Below, piece by piece: positions 575 to 50,860 of a DNA stretch of 64,000 nt. Positions within the stretch are counted from its first letter, which is position 1; the number at the start of each line of letters is the position of its first letter. The notes under the pieces are model-generated. The model was not told the DNA's origin. It saw nothing but the letters and a program-made list of their open reading frames with translations, and made no database searches. Made by a program: the position numbers and the translations under genes. This stretch comes from Dehalococcoidales bacterium. GTDB lineage: Bacteria > Chloroflexota > Dehalococcoidia > Dehalococcoidales > UBA2162. The stretch covers positions 768-64,767 of the forward strand of contig DAOULV010000023.1 in assembly GCA_034416335.1 (NCBI GenBank), read 5' to 3'.

Positions 575-608
575 AAAAAGGGGCCGGTGATTCACCAGCC
601 CCTTTTTT
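575..608. terminator. bidirectional rho-independent terminator between convergent genes
   Basis: Hairpin GGGGCcGGTG-att-CACCaGCCCC (580-602) with an A-run upstream and a T-run downstream. Confidence 0.6.
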
Positions 609-1329
609 ACTCTGTTGTAATACTGTCATTAACACCATATAGACCTTCCGCTATCTCTCTTAAAATAGTCCAGGACCTGTTAGCAAGGAATTGCAGAATA
701 TCCTTCTCTATAAGAAACCAAAAGCCATTTATATTAAGCGGTATTTCCTGTTGCCCTTGGATAATCTTTCCGAAATTATAGGTTTTACCTTCCACTTCAC
801 TTACTAGATTGGTTTTTTTGATTTTATTCTTCAGTTCAGGATCGAAAATACCAACTAACTCGACTAGAGTGTTGATATCCTTAAGGATCAGCTGATTTCG
901 AGTTTCCCTTTCTAATTCGGTAGATGTCGGTAAATCAATAAATACAGGATGGGCTGCGATATTATTGCGAAGATTATTTAATGTCTTGGCTTGTTGGATA
1001 TATGGTTGAAGCGAACTCACGTCACTACATCTGTAAATGACTTGACCGAAAGTGCATCTTTCAATGTCTTTATACTCATGTCCGGTAACCTTCAGGTATT
1101 CATACTTAAAAATCTGGTCAACTGCGCAGGCACAACAAAAAATTGTGCTGCGATAATTTCCGTTTATATAGCTTTCTGAGGCTTCACCGGCATAATCCCA
1201 TTCTCGTTGAGATGCAAAAAGACGTCCATCTGTTTGTATCGGGGTAAGTTCCTGGAGTCTTTGAGCCCGTCTTTCAAGCGTTCTTTTATCAAAATCTTCG
1301 ATTCTTGTAGTAAAACTATCCGGATTCAT
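607..1329 (-). CDS. hypothetical protein with a HEPN-like R-x5-H motif
   Basis: ORF track 240 aa with a strong SD (AGGAGGAGG) before ATG 1329. The motif LRNNIAAHP fits the HEPN R-x4-6-H pattern. No other family was recognised. Confidence 0.5.
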   Translation of the reverse strand: MNPDSFTTRIEDFDKRTLERRAQRLQELTPIQTDGRLFASQREWDYAGEASESYINGNYRSTIFCCACAVDQIFKYEYLKVTGHEYKDIERCTFGQVIYRCSDVSSLQPYIQQAKTLNNLRNNIAAHPVFIDLPTSTELERETRNQLILKDINTLVELVGIFDPELKNKIKKTNLVSEVEGKTYNFGKIIQGQQEIPLNINGFWFLIEKDILQFLANRSWTILREIAEGLYGVNDSITTE

Positions 1330-1417: not shown

Positions 1418-1446
1418 TTGACATTTTTAAATCACCAAATTACAAT
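1418..1446 (+). promoter_or_regulatory. sigma70-like promoter of the toxin-antitoxin pair
   Basis: TTGACA (1418-1423), 17-nt spacer, TACAAT (1441-1446). This makes the ORF-track TTG start at 1418 unlikely. Confidence 0.5.
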
Positions 1447-1489
1447 GTGTATACGTACGGAAGTATGCACGTCTGGAAGGAGGTATGGC

Positions 1490-1753
1490 ATGAAACGAAA
1501 GATGACGGTAGTCTTTCACGATGAAGACCTTTATAAACAACTAAAAATCGAGGCGGTTAAAAGAAGCACCGCAGCGAGTGACATTGTGACAGACGCAGTT
1601 CGTGAGTGGTTGGAAAGTCGTGAAGATGCGGAACTTTTACCTGAGATTGAAGCCGCCCGAACCGAATGGAAAGAAAAAGGTGGCCGTCCCTGGTCCGAAG
1701 CTGAAAGAGAATTGGAAGAAACTATCATTCAGGGTGAAGGATTACCGAGGTAA
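1490..1753 (+). CDS. ribbon-helix-helix (CopG-like) antitoxin
   Basis: GGAAGGAGG SD then ATG 1490, in frame with ORF 1418..1753. The N-terminus MKRKMTVVFHDEDLYKQLKIEAVKRSTAASDIVTDAVREWL is RHH-like. It lies directly upstream of the RelE-like gene. Confidence 0.7.
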   Translation: MKRKMTVVFHDEDLYKQLKIEAVKRSTAASDIVTDAVREWLESREDAELLPEIEAARTEWKEKGGRPWSEAERELEETIIQGEGLPR

Positions 1754-1756
1754 AGC

Positions 1757-2026
1757 GTGTTCAGAATAGAGGTTTCGCCGGCCGCTGATCGGGATTTAGA
1801 TAAACTCAAAGGAAGGATACGTAGACAGGACTTTGAGCGTTTACGAACAGCAATTAGAAATCTAGCTGATGAACCTCGTCCCCAGGGTGTGAGAAAAATC
1901 AAAGGCGCTGAGAGGGCTTATCGCATCAGGATTGGTAGTTACAGAGTCGTGTATGAGGTATATAATGATGATAACTTGGTCCTGATTCTTCAGGTATCAC
2001 GAAGGAGTGAAACAACCTATCGATAA
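1757..2026 (+). CDS. RelE/ParE-family type II toxin
   Basis: ORF track 89 aa. RAYRIRIGSYRVVYEVYNDDNLVLILQVSRRSE is the typical RelE/ParE core. It starts 4 nt after the antitoxin stop. Confidence 0.8.
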   Translation: MFRIEVSPAADRDLDKLKGRIRRQDFERLRTAIRNLADEPRPQGVRKIKGAERAYRIRIGSYRVVYEVYNDDNLVLILQVSRRSETTYR

Positions 2027-2038
2027 CAGGTAGAATCA

Positions 2039-5000
2039 ATGAGTGATGAAGCTAAACAATTCAATAGCTACATTAGTTCTCTTCAAAAGGAATTAGCTAC
2101 AGGAAACACAACCGAGCATACTCATAGGCCCGCTTTTAAAACTTTAGTAGAGTCTCTTGATAAGGGAGTAACCGCAACAAACGAACCAGGCAGAATTAAA
2201 TGCGGCGCTCCCGATTTTGTTGTTACGAAAGGAGCCCTCACCATCGGTTATATCGAGGCTAAGGACATCGGTAAAAGTCTGGATGAAGCCGAGAAAACTG
2301 AGCAGTTAACCAGATACCGTGAATCTCTCAATAACCTAATTTTGACCAATTACCTGGAATTCAGATGGTACGTGGATGGTGACCTCCGGCTAGTCGCTAA
2401 TCTGGGAACTCCTGCGAAAGACGGAAAGATAAAACGCAGCAAGACAGGAGCCGAAGACGTCCATGAGCTAATAAGCGGATTTCTAGTAAACAAGGCAGAG
2501 GCTATCGGCACGCCGAAAGACCTAGCCATCCGGATGGCACACCTGGCACATATGATACGCAACCTGATTATCAATGCCTTTGAGAATGAGGAGGAGACCG
2601 GCGGTTTACATACTCAACTAGAGGCTTTCCGGGATAACTTAATTCCTGACCTATCTGTAGAGTATTTTGCGGATATGTATGCCCAGACCATAGCCTATGG
2701 GTTGTTCGCAGCCCGTTGTACATCCAACAATGGTACGTCTTTCACTCGACTTGATGCCGCTCAGAACCTACCGAAGACAAATCCTTTCCTGAGAAAGCTA
2801 TTTCAATACATAGCCGGCTACGACCTTGATGACCGCATTGCCTGGCTGGTGGATGACCTGGCACAGGTGCTGGCACAAGCGGATATGGAAGCCGTGCTCA
2901 AGGGCTTCGGCAAGCACACAGGTAAAGAAGACCCGGTAGTGCATTTCTACGAAACTTTCCTGAAAGAGTACGACCCTAAGATACGGGAAATGCGTGGCGT
3001 CTACTACACGCCGGAACCGGTAGTATCTTATATCGTGCGTTCCATCGATCATCTGTTGAAAACAAGGTTCAATAAACCGCAGGGGTTGGCTGATGAAAAG
3101 ACGCTGATTCTTGATCCCGCGGTGGGTACTGCCACATTCCTCTATACGGTGATTAACGAAATCTATCAGGCTAACACTGCAAAAGGACAGCAAGGTCTGT
3201 GGAATAATTACGTGGCGGAAAAACTCCTGCCGCGTATCTTCGGATTCGAACTGCTAATGGCACCTTATGCCGTAGCGCATCTGAAGCTGGGGCTTCTACT
3301 TCAAGATACAGGCTACGAGTTTAAGAGCGACCAGCGGCTTGGTGTTTACCTGACGAATACACTGGACGAAGCGATAAAACACTCCGAAGCACTCTTCGCA
3401 CAATGGATAAGCGAAGAAGCCAACGCTGCAGCCAGGATAAAGAAAGATGAACCTATTATGGTTGTGCTAGGTAATCCTCCCTATTCAAAACAGTCAGCAA
3501 ATAAAGGGAAATGGATTACAGAACTAATTAATGGTGTTATTGATAAAGATGGACATGAAATGAGTAAAGGATATAAAACTGTTGATGGTAAACCTATTAA
3601 AGAGAAGAATCCAAAATGGCTTCACGATGACTATGTGAAATTTATACGTTTTGGTCAATGGCGTATTGAACTTACAGGCCAAGGAATCCTCGGACTAATA
3701 ACCAATCATGGTTATCTAGATAACCCGACATTCCGTGGTATGCGGCAATCGCTAATAGAGACGTTTACTGATGTGTATATCCTGAACTTGCATGGTAATA
3801 CAAGGAAAAGAGAGGTTACTCCAGATGGCAGCAAGGATGAGAATGTTTTTGATATTCAACAAGGAGTAGCTATAACGTTATTCATTAAAGAAAGAGATGA
3901 AACTAAATCAGCAAAAGTTCATTATATGGATTTCTGGGGAATACGTGAAAAAAAGTACGCTGCTTTATATGAAGCTAGTATCGATACTCTCGAATGGAAG
4001 GAAATAGAACCGCACAGCCCTTATTATTTATTCTTGCCGACACATGAAACAGAGCTAGAGGAATATAACACTGGATGGAAACTTAATGAGATATTCCCTG
4101 CAAATAACGCGGGTTTTTATACATCGAGAGATAATTTAGTTATAGATTACGATAAAGAAGCACTACAAAATAGAATAATGAATTTTCTTGAAAATACTCT
4201 CAGTGATGATGAAATCCGAGAACGATATCAGGTAGTGGAAAAAGATGATTGGAAAATAAATACTACTCGTAAAATTATCCGCAAGGAAAAACATATTTCT
4301 AAGTTTTTTAAAAGGTGTCTTTACCGTCCTTTTGATACAAGGAATATATACTATCATAAAGCCCTGATACAAAGGCCACGATTTGAAATAATGAATCACA
4401 TGATTAGTGGTAATAACATTGGACTTATTTCTGCAAGAAGTAACAAAACATCCGAAATGACTCAGTTTTTTTGTTCATCTAATATAACTGAACTAAAGTG
4501 TGGTGAATATTCCATAGGATCTTACTTGTTCCCGCTTTACCTCTATCCAGTCGAAGGTGAGATGCAGTTTGATGGCGGCAAGCGACGTTCTAACCTTAAT
4601 CCAGAGTTTATAAAGGACGCGTCTGATAAGCTGAGACTAGAGTTTATCGAGGACGGAAGAGGAGACCTGGAGGAAACATTCGGACCGGAGGATATATTCA
4701 ACTATGCCTATGCCGTCTTCCACTCACCAACATACCGGACACGCTACGCCGAATTCCTCAAGATAGACTTCCCTCGCCTACCGCTAACCTCGGATAAGCA
4801 GCTTTTCAAGGCATTAGCAGAGAAAGGCGCCGAACTAGTGTCACTCCATCTCATGGAGTCACCCGCGTTGAATAATCTTATTACCAGTTATCCTGTAGCC
4901 GGTCCCAACGAAATGAAAAAGGTAACCTATGATGACAATAGCCAGCGTGTCTACATCAACAAAACGCAGTACTTTAAGGGTGTTCCGCCTGAAGTCTGGG

Positions 5001-5173
5001 CATTTCATGTAGGCGGGTACCAGGTATGCCAGAAATGGCTAAAAGACCGCAAAGGCAGAACACTCACCTACGATGAATTAACTCATTACCAGAAAATAGT
5101 CGTAGCGCTCAACGAAACTATTCGGTTGATGGCAGAGATAGACAAGTTGATACTGGAGTGGCCGTTAATGTAG
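2039..5173 (+). CDS. type IIG/ISP-like N6-adenine DNA methyltransferase with an N-terminal PD-(D/E)xK-like motif (no helicase)
   Basis: ORF track 1044 aa. Motif I is LDPAVGTATF and motif IV is NPPY (nt 3473-3484). The N-terminus has APD (2210-2215)...IEAK (2255-2263). The C-terminal YAYAVFHSPTYRTRYAEFLKIDFPRLP resembles the type ISP/IIG C-terminal domain. Confidence 0.8.
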   Translation: MSDEAKQFNSYISSLQKELATGNTTEHTHRPAFKTLVESLDKGVTATNEPGRIKCGAPDFVVTKGALTIGYIEAKDIGKSLDEAEKTEQLTRYRESLNNLILTNYLEFRWYVDGDLRLVANLGTPAKDGKIKRSKTGAEDVHELISGFLVNKAEAIGTPKDLAIRMAHLAHMIRNLIINAFENEEETGGLHTQLEAFRDNLIPDLSVEYFADMYAQTIAYGLFAARCTSNNGTSFTRLDAAQNLPKTNPFLRKLFQYIAGYDLDDRIAWLVDDLAQVLAQADMEAVLKGFGKHTGKEDPVVHFYETFLKEYDPKIREMRGVYYTPEPVVSYIVRSIDHLLKTRFNKPQGLADEKTLILDPAVGTATFLYTVINEIYQANTAKGQQGLWNNYVAEKLLPRIFGFELLMAPYAVAHLKLGLLLQDTGYEFKSDQRLGVYLTNTLDEAIKHSEALFAQWISEEANAAARIKKDEPIMVVLGNPPYSKQSANKGKWITELINGVIDKDGHEMSKGYKTVDGKPIKEKNPKWLHDDYVKFIRFGQWRIELTGQGILGLITNHGYLDNPTFRGMRQSLIETFTDVYILNLHGNTRKREVTPDGSKDENVFDIQQGVAITLFIKERDETKSAKVHYMDFWGIREKKYAALYEASIDTLEWKEIEPHSPYYLFLPTHETELEEYNTGWKLNEIFPANNAGFYTSRDNLVIDYDKEALQNRIMNFLENTLSDDEIRERYQVVEKDDWKINTTRKIIRKEKHISKFFKRCLYRPFDTRNIYYHKALIQRPRFEIMNHMISGNNIGLISARSNKTSEMTQFFCSSNITELKCGEYSIGSYLFPLYLYPVEGEMQFDGGKRRSNLNPEFIKDASDKLRLEFIEDGRGDLEETFGPEDIFNYAYAVFHSPTYRTRYAEFLKIDFPRLPLTSDKQLFKALAEKGAELVSLHLMESPALNNLITSYPVAGPNEMKKVTYDDNSQRVYINKTQYFKGVPPEVWAFHVGGYQVCQKWLKDRKGRTLTYDELTHYQKIVVALNETIRLMAEIDKLILEWPLM

Positions 5174-5322: not shown

Positions 5323-5351
5323 TTGACGTTTGTTGAACATAACATTATAAT
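5323..5351 (+). promoter_or_regulatory. sigma70-like promoter of the six-gene operon
   Basis: TTGACG (5323-5328), 17-nt spacer, TATAAT (5346-5351), in the 213-nt gap after the MTase. Confidence 0.55.
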
Positions 5352-5386
5352 CGAATACTTCACATATGTGGGGGGAGGTAAATAAT

Positions 5387-6286
5387 ATGCCAAACTACAT
5401 TAGAGATTTGTTTCTATATGTACCTGAGCCAGTATTAAGAAATTTATGCAAAGAGCATGGAATAAAGACTTCGGGATTAAAAAAACTGCAACTTGCCGAG
5501 CAGTTAGTAAAAGGGATTGAAACCCAAGAGTATGAGTCTATACTAGATCAACATCGTTATGCCGGAAGGGGAAGCGTGGTTTGGTTTAGACCTACTCGAA
5601 ATGGAGATACTTTCACAATATCCGATACAGAATTGCGAAACCATATACGTAACTATTGTAATGGTGATCCTTTTGAGAACGACCTTACACCAGAGCTTGA
5701 CCGGCATCCGAAAATAATAAGCTCTAGATTCCTCCATAATGATAAAATAATTATTTTAATGGCTCATATTGAGTTGTGGCCTCGAATTGTTGGCTTTGAA
5801 GTACAGGAAACGGAAGAGACGGTATTTTCTAGATTAATCATTCGACAAGGGTCTTTGTTTTTCGAGGCACGCGCTAGTCAATATAAAGCCGTTCTTATGG
5901 CAGAAGATATTGCGGCAGCACTGGATTGTACAGATATAGGTCAGATAACTCTCGGAGATGATGGTATGAATACTCTAATAGATCGACTGGGTGCATCGAC
6001 TATTGCAGCAAAACATAAACATAATTCAGGCGATTATGATACCACCGAAGTAGTTGTTAATCCTCAAATCGGAGATCTGAGAGACTCTTCACAATATTCC
6101 AATGAACTAAGCGGTCTAGAAGGACGTAGGAAACGAGTTTCTTTTGATTGCACTTTCGGTTCTGAGGTGGTAGCCGTAAGAGCGGAGCTTTATCCAAGAA
6201 CTGGGAATATAGTTTTTCGGTCATATGTAGATGAGAGGGTGTTAGATTATGTATTTGAAACAGTTAGACAAATTAAGGGATTATAA
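5387..6286 (+). CDS. hypothetical protein with an N-terminal SAP-like motif
   Basis: GGAGG 5374-5378 plus ATG 5387 is preferred over ATG 5366. LRNLCKEHGIKTSGLKKLQLAEQLV resembles a SAP DNA-binding motif. The rest is unassigned. Confidence 0.5.
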   Translation: MPNYIRDLFLYVPEPVLRNLCKEHGIKTSGLKKLQLAEQLVKGIETQEYESILDQHRYAGRGSVVWFRPTRNGDTFTISDTELRNHIRNYCNGDPFENDLTPELDRHPKIISSRFLHNDKIIILMAHIELWPRIVGFEVQETEETVFSRLIIRQGSLFFEARASQYKAVLMAEDIAAALDCTDIGQITLGDDGMNTLIDRLGASTIAAKHKHNSGDYDTTEVVVNPQIGDLRDSSQYSNELSGLEGRRKRVSFDCTFGSEVVAVRAELYPRTGNIVFRSYVDERVLDYVFETVRQIKGL

Positions 6287-6638
6287 CATTGCACAAGAGA
6301 CCATAGCTAAGCTAGATGAATATCTAAATAGCATCGCTGAAGAAGGAACAAAACGTTTCAGCCCCAATCACATGGCCGAACGGACTGGGCTTGACATTCA
6401 AATTTCTCAAACGATACTTCTCCGAACAGCTCAAATAGGAACAATTCAAACTTACTATGAAATAGAATGTCCTGAAGGTGATAGTGATTTTTTTGTTACG
6501 AGAATAGAAGATGTTGATTGGAATACTGAATGTGTATGTAGAGTGTGTGGCACAGAATATATACCAAATCCTTCTAATATTTGGGTGACGTTTAGTATTT
6601 TAGACCCTCCTTCCCCAAAAGCATTATGCCGCCTGTAA
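6249..6638 (+). CDS. hypothetical wHTH-like / Zn-ribbon-like protein
   Basis: ORF track 129 aa with a GAGGGTG SD before ATG 6249 and a 38-nt overlap with the upstream gene. It has an HTH-like SPNHMAERTGLDIQISQTILLRTAQ and a Cys cluster ECPEG...CVCRVCG. Confidence 0.45.
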   Translation: MYLKQLDKLRDYNIAQETIAKLDEYLNSIAEEGTKRFSPNHMAERTGLDIQISQTILLRTAQIGTIQTYYEIECPEGDSDFFVTRIEDVDWNTECVCRVCGTEYIPNPSNIWVTFSILDPPSPKALCRL

Positions 6639-7240
6639 GTGGTACTCACAAATCAGGTGGCAGCCTACAAGAACTAACTAAAAGACCAGAGTGGATAGAT
6701 TTCATCCCATCTCAGTTGGTGGCACTTGATAGAGATAAATACTCAGAATTACTAGGACGAGTTGAAGAATCACTCCTTTCAGGAACCAATAAAGAAAAAG
6801 GAGATAGTCTAGAAGAACTCGCTGATTTTCTATTAAGCTCAATCAAAGCATTTATTGTCGGGCAAAAAACCAACACATCAACCGGAGAGCTGGATAGATT
6901 CTTGAAAATAAGTAAGATTCCCGGGACATTTTTATGCGACTGGTCATTGTATATTCCCGTAGAATGTAAAAATTGGAATGATCCTGTGGGTGGGGATATT
7001 ATTGACCATCTTTATGCCAAAGCAAGGAATATGGATGCAAATCGAGGAATTTTATTTTCTCGTGAAGGTGTTACAGGCAATATGAGTCATGATGGTTGGA
7101 GACAAATCGTAAACTTATTTCAAAATTCCCGTTATATAACCATTGTTGTGGACATTGATGACCTAAGAAGTATCAACGCTGGAACTTGTCCATTGCATAT
7201 AATAGAGCAATGCCAGGAAAAAGTAATATTAAGCGCATGA
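6626..7240 (+). CDS. Mrr-like restriction endonuclease-domain protein
   Basis: ORF track 204 aa. GDSLEELADFLL...ELDRFL...YIPVECKNW...GILFSREGVT follows the Mrr_cat PD-(D/E)xK layout (D...ExK). It overlaps the upstream gene by 13 nt. Confidence 0.6.
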   Translation: MPPVSGTHKSGGSLQELTKRPEWIDFIPSQLVALDRDKYSELLGRVEESLLSGTNKEKGDSLEELADFLLSSIKAFIVGQKTNTSTGELDRFLKISKIPGTFLCDWSLYIPVECKNWNDPVGGDIIDHLYAKARNMDANRGILFSREGVTGNMSHDGWRQIVNLFQNSRYITIVVDIDDLRSINAGTCPLHIIEQCQEKVILSA

Positions 7241-7283: not shown

Positions 7284-8192
7284 ATGATGAACGAACTTAA
7301 CAGCTCACATTTAAATATAATCGACACCATTAAGCTCAGGGGAAGAGAATTTACAGATGATGAGTTGAGCACTATTCGTGAAAGTGTGATAAATAACTTT
7401 GACAAAGGTCGTACTTATATATCAAGAGATATTTGTAATACCCTCAATTGGAAACAACCAAATGGTTGGCTAAAAGATAGAGCATGCCGTGACGTGTTAC
7501 TTGAATTAGAAAAAAGAGAAATAATCAAACTTCCACCTCCTTTGGTAGTTAAGAACAACAAAAAATCTAACAAAGGCAATAGTATAAGTTATTTGAAAAA
7601 TTTTGATCTGAATACACCTATATCCGAATTCCCAAATTCTATTGAACTAGAATTTGCAAAAGGTAATATTCAAGAGAAAGTCTGGAATGAACTGGTCAAT
7701 CAATATCATTATTTGGGACATAGCACTACTGTTGGTAGGTGCATTAAGTATCTGATTAGATCTAACGACAGGTTACTAGGGGCACTCTCATTTTCATCTC
7801 CGGCATGGGAACTGGAGACTAGGAATAATATCCTTAACTCAATAGGTATTGAAAATCCAAGAGATTACACAATAAATAATTCTAGATTTCTCATTTTACC
7901 TATAGTGCAAGTAAATAATCTTGCATCACATGTGTTAGCTATAGCAGCAAAAAAGATTGTTAACGATTGGAAGGACTATTATTCCATAATTCCTCTGATT
8001 GCTGAAACTTTCGTTCAACCATCTCGATTCGATGGCACCTGCTATAAGGCAGCCAACTGGATAGAAATTGGTACAACAAAAGGTTATGCTAAAAGAGGAA
8101 GATTTTATCGAAACAGTCAGGAACCCAAGAAGATATTTTTGTATGGTTTAGATAAAAGAATACGAACAAAGTTGCTACAATTAGAGAAATAG
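7284..8192 (+). CDS. DUF4338-domain protein (DruA-like)
   Basis: ORF track 302 aa. QYHYLGHSTTVGRCIKYLIRSNDRLLGALSFSSPAW and ETFVQPSRFDGTCYKAANWIEIGTTKGY match my memory of the DUF4338 signature. Confidence 0.65.
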   Translation: MMNELNSSHLNIIDTIKLRGREFTDDELSTIRESVINNFDKGRTYISRDICNTLNWKQPNGWLKDRACRDVLLELEKREIIKLPPPLVVKNNKKSNKGNSISYLKNFDLNTPISEFPNSIELEFAKGNIQEKVWNELVNQYHYLGHSTTVGRCIKYLIRSNDRLLGALSFSSPAWELETRNNILNSIGIENPRDYTINNSRFLILPIVQVNNLASHVLAIAAKKIVNDWKDYYSIIPLIAETFVQPSRFDGTCYKAANWIEIGTTKGYAKRGRFYRNSQEPKKIFLYGLDKRIRTKLLQLEK

Positions 8193-8200
8193 GCATTATA

Positions 8201-9256
8201 ATGAATGCACGAGATACCTTAAAGAATGCGCGAGAATTTATTCGTAAACAAGGCGGGCAAATTGCACCGCTCCCTATAACTGAAGAGGAATTGGATCCTT
8301 CAGCTCAAGATGATCAGTCACTTGAAACTTTTTCCTTAGAACCTACAAATTGCCAGAATGTTGAGTATTCATATCCAGATGACTGTGGAAACAGCGAATT
8401 CTCCTTTTTTGAAGATGGTAAACAGAGAACTCTACATATAGGATTTATAGAAACCGAATATGGAGATCATACTGCTATAATTCCGGTACATTTTGTAGTT
8501 GTTGCCGCAGTAATCTTACAACGGCAAGAGCGTGAATTAAGCCTTTGGGATCAGCCAGTGATCCGAAGTGGAATATTGGTCGAAAAGTCACTTGTTCCGA
8601 ATACACATGCTCTTAATGAATTTGAAAATCTCGGATTAGAAATAATCGATACAGAAGGTCTTGGAGGAGACTACTACGTATTGAGGAATAAAGCTTTACA
8701 AAAAGCAAAATCTATGAGATTAGAAGTCGAGGATGAATTAATACGTCGATGGCGTACAAGCGATGATGCCCAAAACGGCTTTTTAATAGTAGATGGGACG
8801 TTGATGAATTTTCGCGACGAGGAGAATGTTAGGCATTGTATTGGTGTCAGTAAATCATTCGGTACTAGATATTTCACCACAAGTGAGCACAATCGTATAT
8901 TACAAATGCAAGAATTTCAAAGATCTTGGACATTTCGTTTCCACCATCCTGGAGATGCACTAAATTTGGGAGTACGTGACCGAGTAAGTTGGTACCTAAG
9001 ACTTAGAACTAAAACTAACGCCGATCCTGAGTTTGGTCTTATCCGAGTAGAGATAAGTCACTCTTATCATAACCAGGCAACCGATTATGCTAATCGATTC
9101 TCTAAATCATTAATATCAGAAAGGCTACCTACTTCCTATCCGGATAGTCGGTGGGATAAACTTTTATATCCTATTCAAGAGTGTGAGAGTTATTTGTCAA
9201 GTGTAATACCTTCAATTCAAACCATCGCTTCCAGTATGAAAGGAGCGCTGTCATGA
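8201..9256 (+). CDS. NurA-like nuclease
   Basis: ORF track 351 aa. NurA-type motifs are FEDGKQR, RLEVEDE, FLIVDGTL and GVSKSF. It sits directly upstream of, and overlaps, a HerA-like ATPase. Confidence 0.55.
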   Translation: MNARDTLKNAREFIRKQGGQIAPLPITEEELDPSAQDDQSLETFSLEPTNCQNVEYSYPDDCGNSEFSFFEDGKQRTLHIGFIETEYGDHTAIIPVHFVVVAAVILQRQERELSLWDQPVIRSGILVEKSLVPNTHALNEFENLGLEIIDTEGLGGDYYVLRNKALQKAKSMRLEVEDELIRRWRTSDDAQNGFLIVDGTLMNFRDEENVRHCIGVSKSFGTRYFTTSEHNRILQMQEFQRSWTFRFHHPGDALNLGVRDRVSWYLRLRTKTNADPEFGLIRVEISHSYHNQATDYANRFSKSLISERLPTSYPDSRWDKLLYPIQECESYLSSVIPSIQTIASSMKGALS

Positions 9257-11052
9257 CATATCAGTCGGTACCACAGGAAGAATCGCCTGAAATGCAAAAT
9301 GAAGAGTTTAGCCTAAGTAATTTTCTGAATATTAGCTACGGAGTCATTGGTAGAACTGCATCGACGAGATTTGAACCCAACACTTCCGGTAAATTCCACT
9401 TTTGGTTATCGAAACTTGCGCCTAATCTTCCAGCTGATGATGATCATGAAGTTCCTACTCCTAACGAAACTCAAGAAGTTGGTAGAGACCGGGAAGAAGT
9501 GGCGCCAATAGAAATAGGAAATATCGTGGCTGCATATTCAGATGATGAGGTAGATATTACATTTGGTACAGTAACAGAAATGAGATCATATAGCGATGTG
9601 GAGAGTTTCATTTCTGATTATTTAAGTCATGATTTTGGCGATGCCACTATTCAAGTTCCGACTGATATTACTGAAGTAATTGTTGTCACTTGTGCTGTAA
9701 TGCGTAATATATCACTTAAGACCAAGCCCGTGGGGAGATCTCGAGTATATTTCCCGAGTACATTAGGGATTCAATTTTCCTACGGAATCGTTGATGAAAA
9801 TGGTGAAATAACCTTTAGAGGTGCGCCTATACCCTTTGGAGTATTTGAAAACGGTGATGGCACTATTGCTCCAATCAGTGTAGACGAAAATTTCTTACTC
9901 GGACCGGAAGGCGCTCATCTTAATGTTTCTGGTATTTCAGGCTTAGCATCAAAAACTTCAGCAATTGAATTTACGATCAACTCTCTTCTCACTCACACTC
10001 GTAAGAGACTGGCTGTAGTGATGTTCAATGTTAAAAGTCAAGATTTACTTTACATCGATCAGGTGAATCCGAGACTCGCGGAGGAAGAATGGTCACAATG
10101 GGCATATGACATTTTAGGTGTACCTCAAGAACCATTTGCTAATGCAAGTTTCTATGCACCTGCAGATCCTAGAAATGCACCAGATGGGACACAGAGTTCC
10201 AGAAGTCTTGAAGTACAGCCCTTCGAATGGAATTTACCTATGATTTATCAGCAAATTCCAACTCTATTTGACCAGATGGATTGGGATGATAGGATGGAAG
10301 GAGTCTGGTTTACAATACAGGGCGATATAGAAAGTGGCCAAATTTTATCTTACGGGCAAATGGTTAATTCGGTTCAAAATCTTATCAATACAGCAACAAA
10401 TAATCAGCGACAATGGGTAAGAGGCAACCATATTTCTACTTGGCAAAAAATGTTATCACACTTAAGGCGATTTCCACAATCTTATCAAGGATTGATAACA
10501 CCTGCTGGTACGGGTAGGGACATACCATGGAATGAGTTACAGGAAAATAGTGTTTGGATCATCGACATTGAAATGCTCGCTGATCGAGGTCAAAGGCTGG
10601 TATTTGGTCGTTCAGTGTATGCTATTAGCGAGATGTTAGAATCTGATGATAGCAACCTAGACGCAGTTGTAGTATTTGTTGACGAATTAAACAAATTTGC
10701 TCCTTCAGGAAATGTTAGAACTCCACTGAAATCTAGGTTAATTGATATCACAGCAAGAGGACGAAGCATAGGAATGGTTCTTTTCGGTGCGGAACAATTT
10801 GTTTCATCAGTAGACAGAGAAATCGTCGAAAATAGTTCAACGTATCTATTCGGACACACTGAAACAAATGAACTACGTAGCCCTACATTTAGTGCGTTGA
10901 GTGATGAAGTAAAAACAAAATTGACGATGCTTCCTCAAGGACAACTGTTAATTAAATTTGCAAAATTCCCACAGCCAATATTCTTGAAATTCCCATTTCC
11001 CGCATGTTGTCCTGGTGATCAATATAGTTCAGAAGACGTGGGAGATCAGTAG
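9253..11052 (+). CDS. HerA/FtsK-superfamily (DUF87-like) ATPase
   Basis: ORF track 599 aa with an ATGA overlap with the NurA-like gene. It has a HAS-barrel-like N-terminus, a deviant Walker A SGISGLASKTS (nt 9931-9960), a Walker B VVVFVDE (nt 10665-10686) and ARGRSIGMVLFGAEQ. Confidence 0.65.
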   Translation: MTYQSVPQEESPEMQNEEFSLSNFLNISYGVIGRTASTRFEPNTSGKFHFWLSKLAPNLPADDDHEVPTPNETQEVGRDREEVAPIEIGNIVAAYSDDEVDITFGTVTEMRSYSDVESFISDYLSHDFGDATIQVPTDITEVIVVTCAVMRNISLKTKPVGRSRVYFPSTLGIQFSYGIVDENGEITFRGAPIPFGVFENGDGTIAPISVDENFLLGPEGAHLNVSGISGLASKTSAIEFTINSLLTHTRKRLAVVMFNVKSQDLLYIDQVNPRLAEEEWSQWAYDILGVPQEPFANASFYAPADPRNAPDGTQSSRSLEVQPFEWNLPMIYQQIPTLFDQMDWDDRMEGVWFTIQGDIESGQILSYGQMVNSVQNLINTATNNQRQWVRGNHISTWQKMLSHLRRFPQSYQGLITPAGTGRDIPWNELQENSVWIIDIEMLADRGQRLVFGRSVYAISEMLESDDSNLDAVVVFVDELNKFAPSGNVRTPLKSRLIDITARGRSIGMVLFGAEQFVSSVDREIVENSSTYLFGHTETNELRSPTFSALSDEVKTKLTMLPQGQLLIKFAKFPQPIFLKFPFPACCPGDQYSSEDVGDQ

Positions 11053-12989: not shown

Positions 12990-13637
12990 CTATACCCGGT
13001 ACCGAATATATGGGTAATTTTCAAGATAGAAACGTGCTAAGTGCGTGAGTGCATGGCTGCGTGATGGTTCTTCTTTTATTCTAGATATCAAATCCAGGGC
13101 GAGGTTTATTTCTCTGGCTTCAGATTCTTCTACCATAAAAGTAAAGCTGACGGGAATAGTGAACTTACCTCCTTCAGAAGTGTTTGATATGATTTCGTCT
13201 GCCTCAAGGTGTGATAGGCGTTTTAATTCCTCAATCTGTTTATTGTTATCTGGAAGAAGTGCCGTCAGTTCATCAGCTTCGTAGGATTTAAAAAGGTTTT
13301 CTAAAAGTATTGCTCTTCGCTCGGGGACTTCTTTACCAGACAGTCGATTAAGGGTTGCCAGATAAAGTCTTGTCTGAGAATCGTCAAGTTTCCAGACCAG
13401 GCAGTTTATTGTTCGATAACTAAGAGCGCGAAGTACACGTAAACGATTATGCCCATTGATAATCTGAAACTTACCTCTTTCGCTAGGATGCAGACGAACC
13501 GTCAACGGTTCATACCTGCCACTCCGCTCTATATGACGCCTTAGTTTACGGGCTGTTTCCGCATTCATAAAGTTACTGTTTTCTGGATGTTCGACCAATA
13601 ATTCAATAGGGATTTCCTGTATTTTTATATTATCCAT
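12990..13637 (-). CDS. ParB/Srx N-terminal-domain protein (ParB-like nuclease domain)
   Basis: ORF track 12990..13724. ATG 13637 is preferred because it avoids a 77-nt overlap. IPIELLVEHPENSN...YEPLTVR...FQIINGHNRLRVLRAL is the ParB-N pattern. Confidence 0.65.
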   Translation of the reverse strand: MDNIKIQEIPIELLVEHPENSNFMNAETARKLRRHIERSGRYEPLTVRLHPSERGKFQIINGHNRLRVLRALSYRTINCLVWKLDDSQTRLYLATLNRLSGKEVPERRAILLENLFKSYEADELTALLPDNNKQIEELKRLSHLEADEIISNTSEGGKFTIPVSFTFMVEESEAREINLALDLISRIKEEPSRSHALTHLARFYLENYPYIRYRV

Positions 13638-13647
13638 TTTATCTATT

Positions 13648-14595
13648 CTATTCGAATAAGTTTCCCTGAGAAGGAATCTCAGTGGAATTCGACCAGTGTC
13701 CGACAATATTACAGCTTCCGCCAATATCCGGGTTCATGCAGCCACAAACTGAGATCTCTATACCGTATATACCAGCGATTCTCTTTACATTCTCGTATAT
13801 TTCATTCCGCGTAGAGGGAGGTAGAGGGACGATAGAAGAATGAGGAGAAAGAACAGGCATACGCCCGGATAAATAGTGACTCATTATACGTTTGGTTATC
13901 GAACTGTCGTTTATATATTTTTGCAGGTTTCGAGCAATCATCGGACGTAGAAATAGTGTGCTTATTGCCGCTTTTTTTATGCCCGTATTAGCTAAAGTCT
14001 CTAATAGACTATTCATGGATACCTCAGTATCGGTAATTCCTGGTATTATGGGTATTATCCTAGCCTCAACTTGTATACCTGCATTGACCAGAGCTTCTAT
14101 TTGCTTGAGACGTACACTTACAGAAGCAGCATTGGGCTCAAAGATGCGTCTTACCGAATCATCTGCGGTGATTGTGCCTATCTGGACTCTGACGATATGA
14201 GCATGTTCTCGCAAAAGACCTAGAGTTTTCTCCGGTATTTTCCCCTTGGTTAAAAAAGCCACCCCAATATCTTTGGCAAGCAATAGATTTAAAACACGGT
14301 GACTTAGTTCCAGCACGTTCTCTAGAGGTTGAAAAAGGTCACTCGAGGGGCTGAAATACACTGCCTGCGGTAATTTCCTTTTTAATGAGAGTTCTTTTTC
14401 CAATTTTTCCAGGATGTTAACGTATAAAGAAACTTTGTTGTCGCCTGGATATACGGAGTATCCGCGAGCGTAGCAATAGAGACAACTATGAGCACATCCC
14501 AGGGTTAAATTAACTGTCGGAATATTAGACAGGCAGGAGAGACTGGATGGAGTGAGAATTGCAGATTTTCTTTCTGTATATTTCAACACTACCAT
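13648..14595 (-). CDS. radical SAM protein, COG1533 / SplB-like ('DNA repair photolyase') family
   Basis: ORF track 315 aa. The CxxxCxxC cluster GCAHSCLYCYARG lies near the N-terminus. Size and layout are typical of COG1533. Confidence 0.75.
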   Translation of the reverse strand: MVVLKYTERKSAILTPSSLSCLSNIPTVNLTLGCAHSCLYCYARGYSVYPGDNKVSLYVNILEKLEKELSLKRKLPQAVYFSPSSDLFQPLENVLELSHRVLNLLLAKDIGVAFLTKGKIPEKTLGLLREHAHIVRVQIGTITADDSVRRIFEPNAASVSVRLKQIEALVNAGIQVEARIIPIIPGITDTEVSMNSLLETLANTGIKKAAISTLFLRPMIARNLQKYINDSSITKRIMSHYLSGRMPVLSPHSSIVPLPPSTRNEIYENVKRIAGIYGIEISVCGCMNPDIGGSCNIVGHWSNSTEIPSQGNLFE

Positions 14596-16208
14596 ATGTA
14601 TTCACCTTTAAGATTCAGGTAATGCTCTTTAGACTTGTGTGAAAATATGTAAGCAAAGTTACCTCTAAGTTTTAAGGTTTTGGTCATATCACAGACCATA
14701 ATGTCATTAAGCGAAAAAGCAGTCATGTGATCGATGAGTTCACGAGAAGTCAGATCCATATCGATGATAATCGTGTAATCACAAACAGTCATGAGGCAAT
14801 CAATAATACTTCTCCCGTCTGTAGTTACCAGACATTCGGGGTTGAATTTCCGTGCGGGAAGTACGAAATCCTGGTTCTTTATATCTCCACATACTTTAGA
14901 ATCTAACAATGTCATGCTCTTATAGAACCGGGTAAGTGATACAAGAGAGTATATTTTTTCGTTCGTTCTATACTTACTTGAATTCGAAATTGCCAGATTG
15001 TCTACTCCCCCTCCGGTTGGAGACAGACTGTTTTCAGGAAGGACCGATTCGATGTTAGATGTAGGAAATAAATCTTTGAGCATCTCTGTTAACTTTTCAG
15101 AATCTAAATTTACAAAGAAGAAATTACCGCAGGTATCTAGCACTTTCGAGATCAAAGCAATTCTTATCCCGTCGGTTTTAGTTGACGGAAGTACCCGACT
15201 TAACCAATTCCTGTAGTCATCGCCAGTATATTCCAGACTACCAATTTACGCTTGCATATTATCTTGAAGAAAGAATCTGGCAGGATTAGGAGGTTCCAGA
15301 TCAACAGATCGCAGTCGGAATCTCGGTGTGAATCCGAATTGTCCTCCCAATTTCTGGATTTTACGGCAAAGTGTGGCAACAAGGCTGCTGCTTCCAGCTC
15401 CTATATCTAAAAACTCTATAGTAATATCATCATTGAAATATTTGTGCTCGGATTGGATTACAGGTTTAACAATACCCTGAAATATTTGTCTTCCTCGTTC
15501 GGCGGTCCATGGGTCGGTTGCATATTTAATACTATCTACAAATTTATTTAGTAGTTGGAAACTTTTCCCCCGCTTTTCTATAGACACTGCAGGATAGAAG
15601 AAGAGTGACATCGGAGAATCCTTAGATAGTGAATACTGCCTGTAATGAAAAAATAATTCCGGTTTCTTATCTCCATTAACTGTAATCACAGGAAGAAAAC
15701 GGGAGTCGTCTAAAGAGTTAGGAAACTTCAGTTTAGCTAAGAGATAGCAAGGATTCCGCGTTGTACAGATTCCGGCAGCGAGTATCTCAGCGTCGGAATC
15801 TGTTAAGATTATTCCGAAGCATTCGAAACCTAAAACCGCCCTAAGTGCGCTTAACCATGATTGAGTAGCGCAGGTTTCCGAATAATTTGATAGAAAAGTG
15901 TTGAGTAAAGAAAAGTAATGGTAACAGAAATCTTTCATTAATGAGGAACTAAATCCACAGTGAATATAATTTCTCCAAACAAAATGAAGCTTGTAAAGAT
16001 TATCCTCTAATTCCTTGTGTTTAAGTTCATACAATGGCTGCCAGTATGCATTCCAATCCTTTGTTTCTAAAATAAACCTTCCACTATTAAAAACCTTAAC
16101 ACTGGTAAGGATAGTATCTTTCTCCAGGACTGACAAAAGTAGTCCCCTATTACGGACTCTTATAAGATTATTTAGCGGTATCGCTGCTGTTTTCATTTCC
16201 GATTCCAA
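14589..16208 (-). pseudogene. about 539-codon class I SAM-methyltransferase-like gene interrupted by a single in-frame TAA
   Basis: ORFs 15246..16208 and 14589..15155 share one frame and are separated only by TAA 15246-15248, with 30 sense codons bridging them. Motif I IEFLDIGAGSS and RSVDLEP lie just before the stop. The 3' end overlaps the rSAM start (ATGGTAG). Confidence 0.55.
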
Positions 16209-16949: not shown

Positions 16950-17132
16950 TGTAATACCTCTCAGGCAATTTAGCACAATATTTACGATTATACAAGCAAT
17001 ATAGTCAAATTACCTGACAATCCATCAATTATAAATCATGCCTGCGCGACATATGGGAACCCGACATCGAAAGCATTATTAGACCGGACCCAATTATATG
17101 TGTATAACCGGGGTCCTGTAGATATGCCGGGA

Positions 17133-18329
17133 CTAATATTTCGTACTCATCAGAACATGATAATGATTCGTTTCCGACAGGCAGCAGACATTCCCGAAGA
17201 CATTTCCCATAAGCCGGTCGTATCGAAGGAACTTACCGGCCACCACAACCAGTCTTCCGTCAGGTTCCAGAATCTCCCGGGCGTGAACGACGAGGGGACC
17301 GGCAATATCGAATCTCTCAAAACCTGTATGAAAAGGCGGGTTGGTCAGGATAATATCATATCGTTTTCCGTTCAAACCGCTGAGGAGGTCGCTTACGATT
17401 ACCTCCGCACCGGTGACATCATTCAAGATGATGTTTTCCCCGACAGACGCTGTCGACGGCAGGTCGACATCCGCAAGGTCGACGTGCCCCGCGCCTTTCC
17501 TGGCAGCGAGGAGACCGATAATTCCATATCCGCAGCCTAAATCAAGAACACTCGAACCCGGAGAGACATCCATTACCTCCAGAAGAAGCCTGGTCCCTTC
17601 ATCGATTTCATCGTATGAAAAGACACCGGGCAGGCTTCGTAAGAGGAAAGTTTCCCCGCAAACTTCGGCTTGGAACTGGCGCCACGTTCCCGGTAAGATA
17701 CCCGGTTCATCCGCCCAGCCGGTATCGCGTGGTATTGGGTCTTCCTTAGCAGCCACGCTTACCCGTCCGCCTCTTTTATAGGCAAGTGTCACGGAGTTCC
17801 CGAACAGCGATTTCATATCCGAAACCGCCGATTTGATTCCTTCCCTATTAGCCCCTGCAAGGTATAAACGACCGCCGTTTTTTAAAGCCGAGAATGATTC
17901 TACCAGCCATCTCCTTGTGAATTCTCTCCCTCGCGGCAATACCATAACGACAATATCGAAAGAATCGGCATATACCGGCAGCACGGAGAGGTCCGGATGA
18001 ATACGCGCATTGGATACGCCGTTTAACCTCAGGGTCCTTTCCGCCATCGCAAGTGCCACGGAGTTCGTATCCACCAGAAGAACGTCGGCGCCGGGAGCGG
18101 CGCGCGCCAGTGTCACACCAAGTGCGCCGTGACCGCAGCCCAGCAGAAGAATCCGTGAACCGGCGGATACTTCAACCGTATCCGCCAGCAAAGCCACAGC
18201 CGGTGTAACGGTATTCCAATATGAAATACCCGGCTTGGAGATAAAACGGACGTTCTGGTTACGCAGGGTTACGGTAAATTCTCTGGTTTCATAGTATTCA
18301 AGATATGAAGGTGCTTTATTCGACATCAC
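17133..18329 (-). CDS. RsmC/RlmG-like rRNA (guanine-N2) methyltransferase with two MTase lobes
   Basis: ORF track 398 aa. Motifs are LLLGCGHGALG, VLDLGCGYGIIGL and ILTNPPFH. Confidence 0.7.
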   Translation of the reverse strand: MMSNKAPSYLEYYETREFTVTLRNQNVRFISKPGISYWNTVTPAVALLADTVEVSAGSRILLLGCGHGALGVTLARAAPGADVLLVDTNSVALAMAERTLRLNGVSNARIHPDLSVLPVYADSFDIVVMVLPRGREFTRRWLVESFSALKNGGRLYLAGANREGIKSAVSDMKSLFGNSVTLAYKRGGRVSVAAKEDPIPRDTGWADEPGILPGTWRQFQAEVCGETFLLRSLPGVFSYDEIDEGTRLLLEVMDVSPGSSVLDLGCGYGIIGLLAARKGAGHVDLADVDLPSTASVGENIILNDVTGAEVIVSDLLSGLNGKRYDIILTNPPFHTGFERFDIAGPLVVHAREILEPDGRLVVVAGKFLRYDRLMGNVFGNVCCLSETNHYHVLMSTKY

Positions 18330-49099: not shown

Positions 49100-50860
49100 A
49101 TGGCAGAAAAGGACAGAATTTATAAGTGTCTCAACCCGGTGGGAATGCAGTTGCCCATCAAAACGTTCCCCCTTGCACCCCGTCTGGATACGCTGGATGG
49201 TAAAGAGATATATCTCAGCATCACCGGCGAACCCGATATTACTATCCCCCTGGAGAAAAAACTTAAGAGCGACTACCCGAACGTCGACTGGAAGATAAAG
49301 AAGACCTACGGCATAGTACCGGTCGAGATATCGGAAGAAGAGATGAAAACAGCCGACGGTCTGATACAGGCGATATGCTGGTGAAGCGGAGCTGTATGGA
49401 GGCAGTTGCCTTATCTGGCCAAACTGGAAAAAGCGGGTATTCCTACCGTAGTAGTAGACCTCGAAGACCAGGAACAGATGGTCAAACAGGAAGCCCTGGT
49501 AAGTGGTGTTCCTAAAATCCGCTACCTGCACGCTTCCCGTACGCTGCCCGGTCCCGAGGACGTGGACAACTGGATAGAGCCGATGTTACAGGAATTACTC
49601 CGCCCTTTGAACGACGAGGAAAAAGAAAGCGGGATGTATACCATTCCCCAGCAGAGAATAATATTCGAAGGCACCCTCGAGGAAGCCCAGGACTTCTACC
49701 AGCAGACCGAGTGGATTCCTCTCCCCGTTGAAGCTCCGATAGCCAAATACACCGACGGCTTCCCGATTGTAGTCCCCACCGAAGAAAAGGTGAAGTGGAT
49801 GCTTACCGGCACCAGCCACGAACCGGATGAAATAATTACCCACCAGGCCGACAGGCTGGCAACGCAGGGAGAAGCGACCAGCGAAGGCAGATTGGAGATA
49901 AGAAAAGGGGACGTAGTCAGGTTCCAGCCTCTGAAAAGGACGGCGACGGTCGAACAGGTAGCAGTAAATGCCGTGATGGCTGGATGTCGACCCGAACACC
50001 TTCCCATCGTACTGGCTATAGCTCAGTCGGGAACCCCTATCAGCACGACCAACTTTCCCAGCCAGGCGGTGTGTGTCTCCGGTCCCATCGTCAAAGAAAT
50101 AGGTATGAACACCGGCTGCGGTATGTTCGGACCGGGCAGCATCGCCAACTCACCCATCGGACGAGCCTACCAGCTGATGGCTATCAACCTCGGCGGAGCA
50201 GTACCCGGGGTCAACCGGATGGGCTGCCTGGGAAGTCCGCTCAACAACGGCGGCGTAGCCTATGCCGAGAATGCCGGCGGCCTGCCAACGGAATGGAAAG
50301 GACTCAACGAGGAGTACGGTTTCAGGAAAGATGAAAACATCGTGATGGTCCAGATGATTACCGGCGGTATACTCGGTTCCCAGTTCTCGCCGGGCGGCTA
50401 CCGGGCTCTTCAGAAGAGCGGTCACGGCGGAATCGCCAGGAAGTTCGACGTCAAGGGTACCCCGGGTCCGCACAACTGGCTCGACTACCTGGTACCGGAA
50501 CTTTACGCCGGGCGTGAAGGTGCCTGGGCGATAGTAATGGTCCCCGAAATGGCACAGCACCTGGTGGACCTCGGATTCAAGTCCAAGGACGATGTATACA
50601 AGTATCTCTGGGAGAAAGGATTCGAACCTCTGAAAAAATACAGGGGGCGGTCGTGGCCCGATTTCAGGAGAAACGGCTGGACGGGCATTGAGAAGACTTC
50701 CGGGAAACCCTGGAAGGAACTTCCCGACGACTACATGGTACCGGCTGCCGGTGACGACCCCAATCAGTTTTGCATTGTAATAGGTGGCGGACAGGAAGAA
50801 GCCTGTGTCCAGCTAGCCGGTGACCGCGGTAACGCCTTCAGCATTGATGCCTGGAAGTAG
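49100..50860 (+). CDS. about 586-aa selenoprotein candidate: GrdB/PrdB/UGSC-like N-terminal domain plus a large uncharacterised C-terminal domain (UGA 49382-49384 = Sec)
   Basis: ORFs 49100..49384 and 49406..50860 are in one frame, and the only interruption is the TGA. The paralogue has a TGA at the same aligned site (AICW-U-SGAVWRQLPY vs GVCW-U-HNAVRRQLPY). The bridge codons differ synonymously (gct/gcc Ala, gta/gtc Val). Hairpin GAGGC-AGUU-GCCUU lies at 49399-49412. Confidence 0.7.

Follow-up and report, generated by a model that had tools for sequence, protein, structure and literature searches.

The subject of this analysis is a trio of overlapping open reading frames (ORF1, ORF2 and ORF3) in a 64,000-nucleotide (nt) stretch of genomic DNA from a Dehalococcoidales bacterium (assembly GCA_034416335.1, contig DAOULV010000023.1, positions 768 to 64,767 of the forward strand), hereafter referred to as the window; coordinates of all features are collected in Table 1. 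The trio is a conserved, co-inherited unit and, being independent of the neighboring methyltransferase gene, a separate passenger in the same genomic island. Our preferred reading, to which we assign a probability of about 0.5, is that it represents an autonomous, methyltransferase-independent nuclease module gated by ORF1, most likely with an anti-phage or exclusion function, and carried on islands and temperate phages. The effector of this module (Mrr-type) would be ordinary, whereas the ORF1 partner family and the three-part organization are new.

A preliminary description made from the sequence had recognized three overlapping genes in this region, and this was borne out, with deduced products of 299 (rather than 300), 129 and 204 amino acids (aa). 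All sequence motifs quoted there are likewise present, namely LRNLCKEHGIKTSGLKKLQLAEQLV at residues 17–41 of ORF1, ECPEG...CVCRVCG in ORF2 and ELDRFL...VECKNW in ORF3. We consider the three ORFs to be genuine genes as opposed to chance ORFs, since homologues 45–63% identical are found in unrelated contigs, where the gene order and the 38-nt overlap between ORF1 and ORF2 are kept. The second overlap, between ORF2 and ORF3, is 13 nt, and the overlaps suggest that translation of the trio is coupled. The assigned start of ORF1 (position 5387, preceded by a Shine-Dalgarno sequence) agrees with the N-termini of its homologues, as an alternative ATG at 5366 does not. An AT-rich gap of 213 nt separates ORF1 from the upstream gene for a 1044-aa methyltransferase, and 43 nt separate ORF3 from the next gene downstream. 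The upstream gap harbors a sigma-70-like promoter candidate, one of the two best such sites in 10 kb, which suggests that the trio is transcribed independently of the methyltransferase gene; we treat this site as a candidate only, because the total number of sigma-70-like sites is at chance level. The trio has a guanine-cytosine (GC) content of 0.386, the methyltransferase gene one of 0.43. Direct or inverted repeats around the trio, as expected of an insertion, were looked for, but only short matches at chance level turned up.

The order ORF1-ORF2-ORF3 is repeated in six further independent loci (L001, L002-4, L007/8, L059, L024 and L006), and the genomic context of the ORF1 family thus rests on seven loci, the window included. 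In each of these loci, ORF2 and ORF3 directly follow the ORF1-family gene. The converse fails: the ORF3-type domain also occurs as a C-terminal domain of other proteins, outside the cassette. Identities to the window ORF1/ORF2/ORF3 are 62/48/63% in L001, 50/45/52% in L002, 36/31/37% in L059 and 20/28/35% in L007; the three proteins diverge in step. Moreover, the constituent genes are fused in various combinations, ORF2 with ORF3 (P0004, 332 aa; P0012; L059; L036; L048; also L007), ORF1 with ORF2 (P0047), and all three together (P0105), the latter two being verified by hidden Markov models. Gene fusions, overlapping reading frames and parallel divergence make it most likely that the three proteins associate in one complex.

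The cassette is rare, with a sparse and patchy spread over distant lineages and phages. An exhaustive profile search among 1.84 billion proteins yielded 94 representatives of the ORF1 family, mostly of 290–330 aa, and word-indexed searches of 5.8 billion proteins retrieved only five relatives of ORF1 and five of ORF3. When representative genomes and viral contigs were scanned with the ORF1 alignment, no match was obtained; metagenomes gave a single locus (L059), and tblastn searches with ORF1 against plasmids and with ORF3 against phages returned nothing.

The most clearly assignable component is ORF3, in which the preliminary description had seen an Mrr_cat-like D...ExK core. Its own match to Pfam Mrr_cat (PF04471) is weak (13.4 bits, E = 0.086, under the 21-bit gathering threshold), and sequence searches of the Protein Data Bank (PDB), with ORF3 itself or with its profile, gave nothing meaningful; in PHROGs it matches the unannotated phrog_6350 (4.7e-10). 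Several other lines of evidence substantiate the assignment. Four residues of the putative active site (E63, D90, E113 and K115) are conserved without change across close and distant members, including the phage copies described below, the sole exception being the triple fusion P0105. The ORF3 profile matches proteins of ten further loci (L012–L017, L020, L028, L030 and L040) at 1e-18 to 1e-41, and these relatives score 19.2–38.9 bits against Pfam Mrr_cat, nine of the ten passing 21 bits (the lowest of them at 24.4) and L017 failing; the Staphylococcus phage Henu2 protein gp14 also passes, at 22.6 bits. A profile-profile alignment (hhalign) of ORF3 with E. coli Mrr (E = 8.5e-4) brings its D...ExK in register with the D...QxK of Mrr. 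Finally, in a structural model of the ORF2-ORF3 fusion homologue P0004 with a predicted local distance difference test score (pLDDT) of 77, Foldseek matched the nuclease part to AspBHI (E = 6e-4), MspJI, EcoT38I, the N-terminal Mrr-like domain of RPB5, and AF1548. By these sequence and model comparisons, ORF3 is a divergent Mrr_cat nuclease with a predicted restriction-endonuclease-like alpha/beta fold.

For ORF2, the proposed combination of a helix-turn-helix with a Cys cluster also held up. The ORF2-equivalent part of the P0004 model matches winged-helix regulators (Foldseek), and of the four cysteines of the cluster, the three at positions 74, 97 and 100 are kept as invariant among close homologues (alignment A2). 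More distant members (P0012, L006) display a CxxC...CxxC arrangement, and the Staphylococcus phage copy has no Cys. The low-confidence linker of the P0004 model coincides with the ORF2/ORF3 gene boundary. ORF2 would thus be the DNA-binding or adaptor half of a split nuclease, and its winged helix and degenerate zinc ribbon, taken together with ORF3, appear to reproduce the domain order of Mrr in two separate genes. The likeness to E. coli Mrr, whose winged-helix part precedes an Mrr_cat-type PD-(D/E)xK domain, extends to the size and domain order of the fused homologues (312–376 aa) and to the lack of need for a cognate methyltransferase. The trio enzyme differs from it in being split in two genes, in the zinc ribbon of ORF2 with no match to Mrr_N, in the sub-threshold Mrr_cat score of ORF3, and in ORF1, which has no counterpart in Mrr.

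This resemblance invites the interpretation that the trio is a type IV modification-dependent enzyme, in which ORF2 would read a modified base in the manner of the N-terminal domain of Mrr, ORF3 would cut, and ORF1 would serve as an accessory clamp or scaffold. Indeed, a winged helix joined to Mrr_cat, whether in two genes as in the trio or in one as in the fused homologues, mirrors E. coli Mrr; the best fold matches, AspBHI and MspJI, are modification-dependent enzymes; and most loci lack a cognate methyltransferase, as expected for type IV. Nevertheless, we regard this interpretation as rather unlikely. Pfam scans detected no Mrr_N, SRA, YTH or other known modified-base reader domain in the trio; the similarity to AspBHI and MspJI, single polypeptides with an N-terminal SRA-like reader that the trio lacks, is limited to the generic nuclease domain, for which they are the top PDB matches. 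The window copy stands beside an active-looking N6-methyladenine (m6A) enzyme, so that m6A at the sites of this enzyme cannot be the target. The conserved, obligate and sometimes fused 300-aa partner is also left unexplained.

ORF1 is this partner. Together with ORF2, it had been described as having no obvious precedent, and at the level of sequence this holds in Pfam, NCBIfam, PADLOC and the PDB sequences. None of the three proteins passes the curated cut-offs in Pfam or NCBIfam (NCBIfam gave no match at all), no Pfam family rises above noise for the 67 aligned members of the ORF1 family, among which no match to RexA or RdgC was found either, and the family profile retrieves nothing meaningful from PDB sequences. 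The SAP-like motif previously noticed at the N-terminus fared less uniformly: the string is there, and helices at residues 14–23 and 33–43 of the structural model are compatible with a helix-loop-helix of the SAP/HeH type, but the Pfam threshold is not reached (16.4 bits, E = 0.007 vs. a gathering threshold of 23.9 bits for SAP, PF02037; E = 0.011 for SAP_new25, also under cut-off), and just four of the 67 family members give weak matches to SAP or Rho_N. The block most conserved in the family, AKHKHNSGDYDTTEVVV (AKHKHxSGDYDTTEVVV), sits in a low-confidence part of the model, with pLDDT < 50 at residues 211–245. We considered an HKD/PLD-type reading of its AKHKH segment and rejected it, the spacing being unlike HxK and the histidines not being conserved in the wider family.

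The best AlphaFold2 model of ORF1 (pLDDT 82, predicted template modeling score 0.79) provides a first indication of its nature. Foldseek searches with this model of the PDB returned CENP-N (E = 6.5e-6) and E. coli RdgC (E = 3.9e-4, template modeling (TM) score 0.44 over ~315 columns), and those of BFVD returned phage proteins named "Recombination-associated protein" and "Exonuclease" (TM 0.41–0.46), with a Foldseek probability of 1.0 for CENP-N, RdgC and the phage RdgC-like models. The structure paper on lambda RexA (PMC11077077) groups RexA, RdgC and IML3/CHL4 (CENP-L/N) in one fold class of non-specific DNA binders, and shows dimerization and non-specific DNA binding for RexA and its homologues in actinophages. 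From the model, ORF1 is tentatively predicted to represent a new family of the RdgC/CENP-N fold class, to which lambda RexA also belongs. RdgC and CENP-N/CENP-L (Chl4/Iml3) are its best structural matches over ~300 residues and are of similar size (~300 aa); unlike them in sequence, with which it shares no similarity, and related at TM scores of only 0.44–0.46, ORF1 adds an N-terminal four-helix region with the SAP-like motif and, in contrast to RdgC, is always encoded with a nuclease.

Combining these assignments, we envision the following mechanism. ORF2 (winged helix and zinc ribbon) and ORF3 (Mrr_cat-type PD-(D/E)xK) would constitute one Mrr-like endonuclease split over two polypeptides, and ORF1, with its RdgC/CENP-N/RexA-class DNA-binding fold and N-terminal helix-loop-helix, an obligate third subunit. 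ORF1, probably as a dimer, would bind DNA or a phage DNA-protein intermediate, and this binding would gate or position the ORF2-ORF3 nuclease, which may then cleave the DNA of the invader and perhaps that of the host too. The module could be triggered by a modification of the DNA, as in type IV systems, or, in a Rex-like manner, by a DNA-protein intermediate of the phage. We favor gating by ORF1, since a plain type IV enzyme could do without a 300-aa partner that is obligate and in some cases fused.

The position of the trio directly downstream of a methyltransferase gene had suggested a different role, that of a restriction arm, with the 1044-aa enzyme protecting host DNA and the trio cutting unmethylated DNA. 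In favor of it are the adjacency on the same strand, the divergent trio near HsdM genes in L024 and the ORF3-like domains fused to HsdM-type methyltransferases in cyanobacteria. This proposal fails, and we deem it extremely unlikely. The upstream protein is a complete type IIG restriction-modification enzyme that matches the PADLOC REase_MTase_IIG model end to end (E = 0). Pfam detects N6_Mtase and Type_ISP_C domains in it, and near its N-terminus it has a PD...ExK motif of its own (GAPDFVV...IEAKD), so that a separate nuclease is unnecessary. Furthermore, no DNA methyltransferase was found near the trio in five of the six other loci (L001, L002-4, L006, L007 and L059) or near the phage copies, and the 213-nt gap with its promoter-like site and the difference in GC content also set the two apart. 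The same type IIG protein weakly matches the MADS MAD2 models.

The cyanobacterial fusions are informative in their own right. The HsdM-fused domain (L012, L013, L024) is the nearest relative of ORF3 outside the cassette (33–36% identity, profile matches of 1e-36 to 1e-42), and the two that were scanned (L012 and L013) pass Pfam Mrr_cat. In these proteins, unlike in the trio, the nuclease is joined to an N6-adenine methyltransferase, with no ORF1 or ORF2 within the protein. In L024, a near-duplicate HsdM that lacks the nuclease comes after the HsdM-nuclease fusion, and the divergent trio lies 2 kb further on. An ORF3-like domain fused to HsdM and a trio located near HsdM indicate that this nuclease domain can serve methylation-linked enzymes elsewhere.

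A nuclease without a protective methyltransferase must be restrained somehow, and the overlapping genes on mobile or island DNA and prophages would also suit an addiction (toxin-antitoxin-like) module, in which ORF1 and/or ORF2 would restrain a toxic ORF3 nuclease and the cassette would stabilize its host island or prophage. We find this improbable: the one-polypeptide fusions (P0105, P0047, P0004, P0012) argue against a labile antitoxin, ORF1 is large, structured and unlike typical antitoxins, and the island in the window already has a classical ParE pair.

The proposed anti-phage or exclusion function draws on a distant version of the cassette found in seven Firmicutes genomes and in temperate phages, with a first gene of 336–378 aa, a winged-helix gene of ~122 aa and a nuclease gene of 227–268 aa. 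Phage records with the cassette include seven of S. aureus and nine of Clostridium, of which seven are C. tetani-type with the full cassette. Its location is the endolysin-integrase interval in Staphylococcus phage Henu2 (gp12–14), and between endolysin and attR in Clostridium tetani phages; the interval between endolysin and integrase or attR is a classical position of accessory genes in temperate phages. All three genes are annotated as hypothetical in the phages, and the phage-type first gene corresponds to the unannotated PHROG 17559. A third version, with a first gene of 395–453 aa, occurs in Bacillaceae and Clostridia. The phage accessory position, the low-GC island of the window with its RHH-ParE, type IIG, DruA-like and HerA genes, and the neighbors of the cassette in L007 (OLD/GajA-like and Mrr_cat genes) point to defence as the context of the trio, without proving it.

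Within our preferred reading, we tentatively envision, as a rather less likely specific version, a Rex-like exclusion, in which ORF1 of the RexA/RdgC fold would sense phage DNA or replication-recombination intermediates and switch on a split Mrr-type nuclease that replaces RexB. The proposed logic of the trio, a DNA-binding sensor coupled to an effector, resembles that of lambda RexA/RexB and the actinophage Rex-like systems (PMC11077077), as does the occurrence of the distant cassettes as accessory genes of temperate phages. The differences are also substantial: ORF1 has no sequence similarity to RexA, the trio has no RexB-like membrane protein (no hydrophobic segment was detected in ORF1–3, the highest 19-residue Kyte-Doolittle mean being 1.44), its effector is a nuclease, and the phage cassettes lie by lysis and integrase genes, not in the immunity region.

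The RdgC-class fold of ORF1 may also be taken to indicate DNA repair, recombination or mobile-element maintenance, in which an RdgC-like modulator would work with a structure-specific nuclease without any role in immunity; several loci lie outside defence islands, and PD-(D/E)xK nucleases are common in repair. We give this alternative little credence. The very sparse and patchy distribution, with the few family representatives spread over distant lineages and phages, is ill-suited to a housekeeping function, the phage copies occupy an accessory position beside the integrase or att site, and the window copy is in a low-GC island.

A number of observations weigh against the ORF1-gated defence module as we propose it. 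With regard to the fold of ORF1, it comes from one confident AlphaFold2 model of five (the others at 51–59), built on a 5-sequence alignment; the TM scores of the fold matches are all below 0.5 (0.41–0.46), RexA is absent from the top 50 PDB fold matches, and hhalign comparisons of ORF1 with lambda RexA and E. coli RdgC gave probabilities < 1% for both. All three proteins are acidic (pI 4.6–5.6). As regards the link to phages, an hhalign comparison of the ORF1 family with the phage/Firmicutes first gene gave a probability < 1%, and the first gene of 395–453 aa matched the family only weakly and co-linearly at the N-terminus (E = 0.006, probability 6%); because these homology comparisons are negative or weak, we treat the first genes of the phage, Firmicutes and Bacillaceae/Clostridia versions as positional analogues of ORF1. 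As to a defence function, the PADLOC scan of the trio yielded no significant match (ORF3 vs. PDC-S02, E = 0.04, is at chance level), nor did that of the phage and distant versions; the cassettes of L059 and L002-4 are surrounded by genes for metabolism or transport, outside defence islands; and no described system of this composition was found in the literature. In the only triple fusion, P0105 (615 aa; representative library), the ExK motif is replaced by LCR, and the nuclease of this protein may therefore be inactive or work differently. Finally, two of the seven ORF1-family loci (the window and L024) adjoin N6-adenine methyltransferase genes; along with the HsdM fusions, this leaves room for a looser link between the trio and methylation.

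In the window, the first 17 kb have a GC content of 0.34–0.47 (mostly 0.38–0.43), while positions 17001–64000 average 0.49, and housekeeping genes start at this step (e.g., an rRNA methyltransferase-like gene at 17133–18329); neither tRNA genes nor an integrase were seen within the window. The low-GC island contains a ribbon-helix-helix (RHH)-ParE pair, the type IIG enzyme, the trio, a DruA/DUF4338-like gene, a 351-aa gene and a HerA ATPase. The last three, tightly packed downstream of the trio, may represent a separate unclassified defence system. The first (302 aa) encodes a Mom-like protein of the DruA/DUF4338 type (Pfam, 1.5e-28); the second (351 aa) matches nothing anywhere and is a candidate NurA-like partner; the third (599 aa) is a HerA ATPase (PDB 7f6d, 3e-34) with a weak PADLOC mad8 match. 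Homologues of the DUF4338 protein on Thiodictyon plasmid pTs485 (L064, 6980–7858) and on plasmid NZ_CP020371.1 (261768–262331) adjoin integrase and IS91/IS4 genes in a disrupted DUF2235 gene, and one is annotated as "ISAs1 family transposase", a hint of this DUF4338 lineage moving together with insertion sequences. Elsewhere in the window, a 240-aa protein (607–1329, reverse strand) with an Rx5H motif (RNNIAAH) and a weak PADLOC CARF_HEPN match (E = 0.005) may be a HEPN-type RNase. An overlapping pair on the reverse strand (12990–14595) comprises a ParB_N-like protein (244 aa) and a radical SAM, spore-photoproduct-lyase-like protein (315 aa), and is followed by two proteins without a Pfam match (14589–16208). 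Two ORFs of equal length (484 aa; 49406–50860 and 51913–53367, forward strand) lie 2.5 kb apart, the former belonging to a 25-member 90%-identity cluster from Dehalococcoidia/Chloroflexota metagenome-assembled genomes (MAGs), all annotated as hypothetical.

Table 1. Features of the trio, its surroundings in the window, and related cassettes and fusions (positions refer to the window unless a locus is named).
Feature	Position	Strand	Description
RHH-type antitoxin and ParE toxin	1418-2026	+	Antitoxin RH3_dom, sub-threshold; toxin Pfam 1.1e-16; just 5' of type IIG gene
Type IIG restriction-modification enzyme	2039-5173	+	1044 aa; PADLOC REase_MTase_IIG positions 3-1075 of 1096, E = 0
Sigma-70-like promoter candidate	5323-5351	+	TTGACG-17 nt-TATAAT; 11 of 12 matches; in gap 5' of ORF1
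Shine-Dalgarno sequence	5374-5378	+	GGAGG, read off the sequence; 8 nt 5' of ORF1 ATG
ORF1	5387-6286	+	299 aa plus stop; founding member of a small uncharacterized family; predicted RdgC/CENP-N (RexA-class) fold, N-terminal helix-loop-helix
SAP/HeH-like motif of ORF1	5435-5509	+	LRNLCKEHGIKTSGLKKLQLAEQLV; residues 17-41; Pfam matches below cut-off
Most conserved block of ORF1 family	6008-6058	+	AKHKHNSGDYDTTEVVV; residues 208-224; from family conservation
ORF2	6249-6638	+	129 aa; predicted winged helix-turn-helix, then zinc-ribbon-like Cys cluster
Cys cluster of ORF2	6468-6548	+	C74, C95, C97, C100; residues 74-100
ORF3	6626-7240	+	204 aa; divergent Mrr_cat-type PD-(D/E)xK nuclease (predicted), N-terminal helical extension
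ORF3 E63	6812-6814	+	Helix glutamate of KEKGDSLEEL; invariant in alignments A2 and A11
ORF3 D90	6893-6895	+	GELDR; catalytic aspartate candidate; invariant; aligns with E. coli Mrr GID aspartate
ORF3 E113-C-K115	6962-6970	+	Putative ExK catalytic motif; invariant; aligns with E. coli Mrr QAK
Three tightly packed genes 3' of trio	7284-11052	+	302, 351 and 599 aa; last two overlap by 4 nt
Cassette L001			Chloroflexota MAG; 299/131/199 aa
Cassette L002-4			Metagenomes; 299/130/205 aa
Cassette L007/8			Marine sediment; 304 + 324 aa, second gene an ORF2-ORF3 fusion
Cassette L059			Metagenome; 301 + 312 aa, second gene an ORF2-ORF3 fusion
Cassette L024			Mojavia pulchra (cyanobacterium); 246/102/224 aa, divergent
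Cassette L006			Metagenome; 375/124/232 aa, distant
Staphylococcus phage Henu2 gp12-14	L011 3573-5582		Distant three-gene cassette, endolysin-integrase interval
Clostridium phage phiCT9441A genes 75-77	L010 3544-5711		Distant three-gene cassette
Cyanobacterial HsdM-nuclease fusions	L012 6540-8525; L013 7086-8519; L024 6447-8471		C-terminal domain ORF3-like

Overall, this analysis corrects the tempting assumption that a nuclease adjoining a methyltransferase is its restriction partner. Decades of research on lambda Rex have not, to our knowledge, revealed the trigger for the RdgC/RexA/CENP-N class. The one- and two-gene fusions, as well as the copies in S. aureus and Clostridium tetani phages, provide experimental handles on the trio. 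If it is a defence module, it would combine an ordinary Mrr-type effector with an obligate partner of the RdgC/RexA/CENP-N class, which has recently been tied to phage exclusion. If the Rex-like version proves true, a RexA-class sensor family would be common to Chloroflexota, cyanobacteria, Firmicutes prophages and probably archaea, and the trio would offer a tractable soluble system for establishing what Rex-type sensors recognize.

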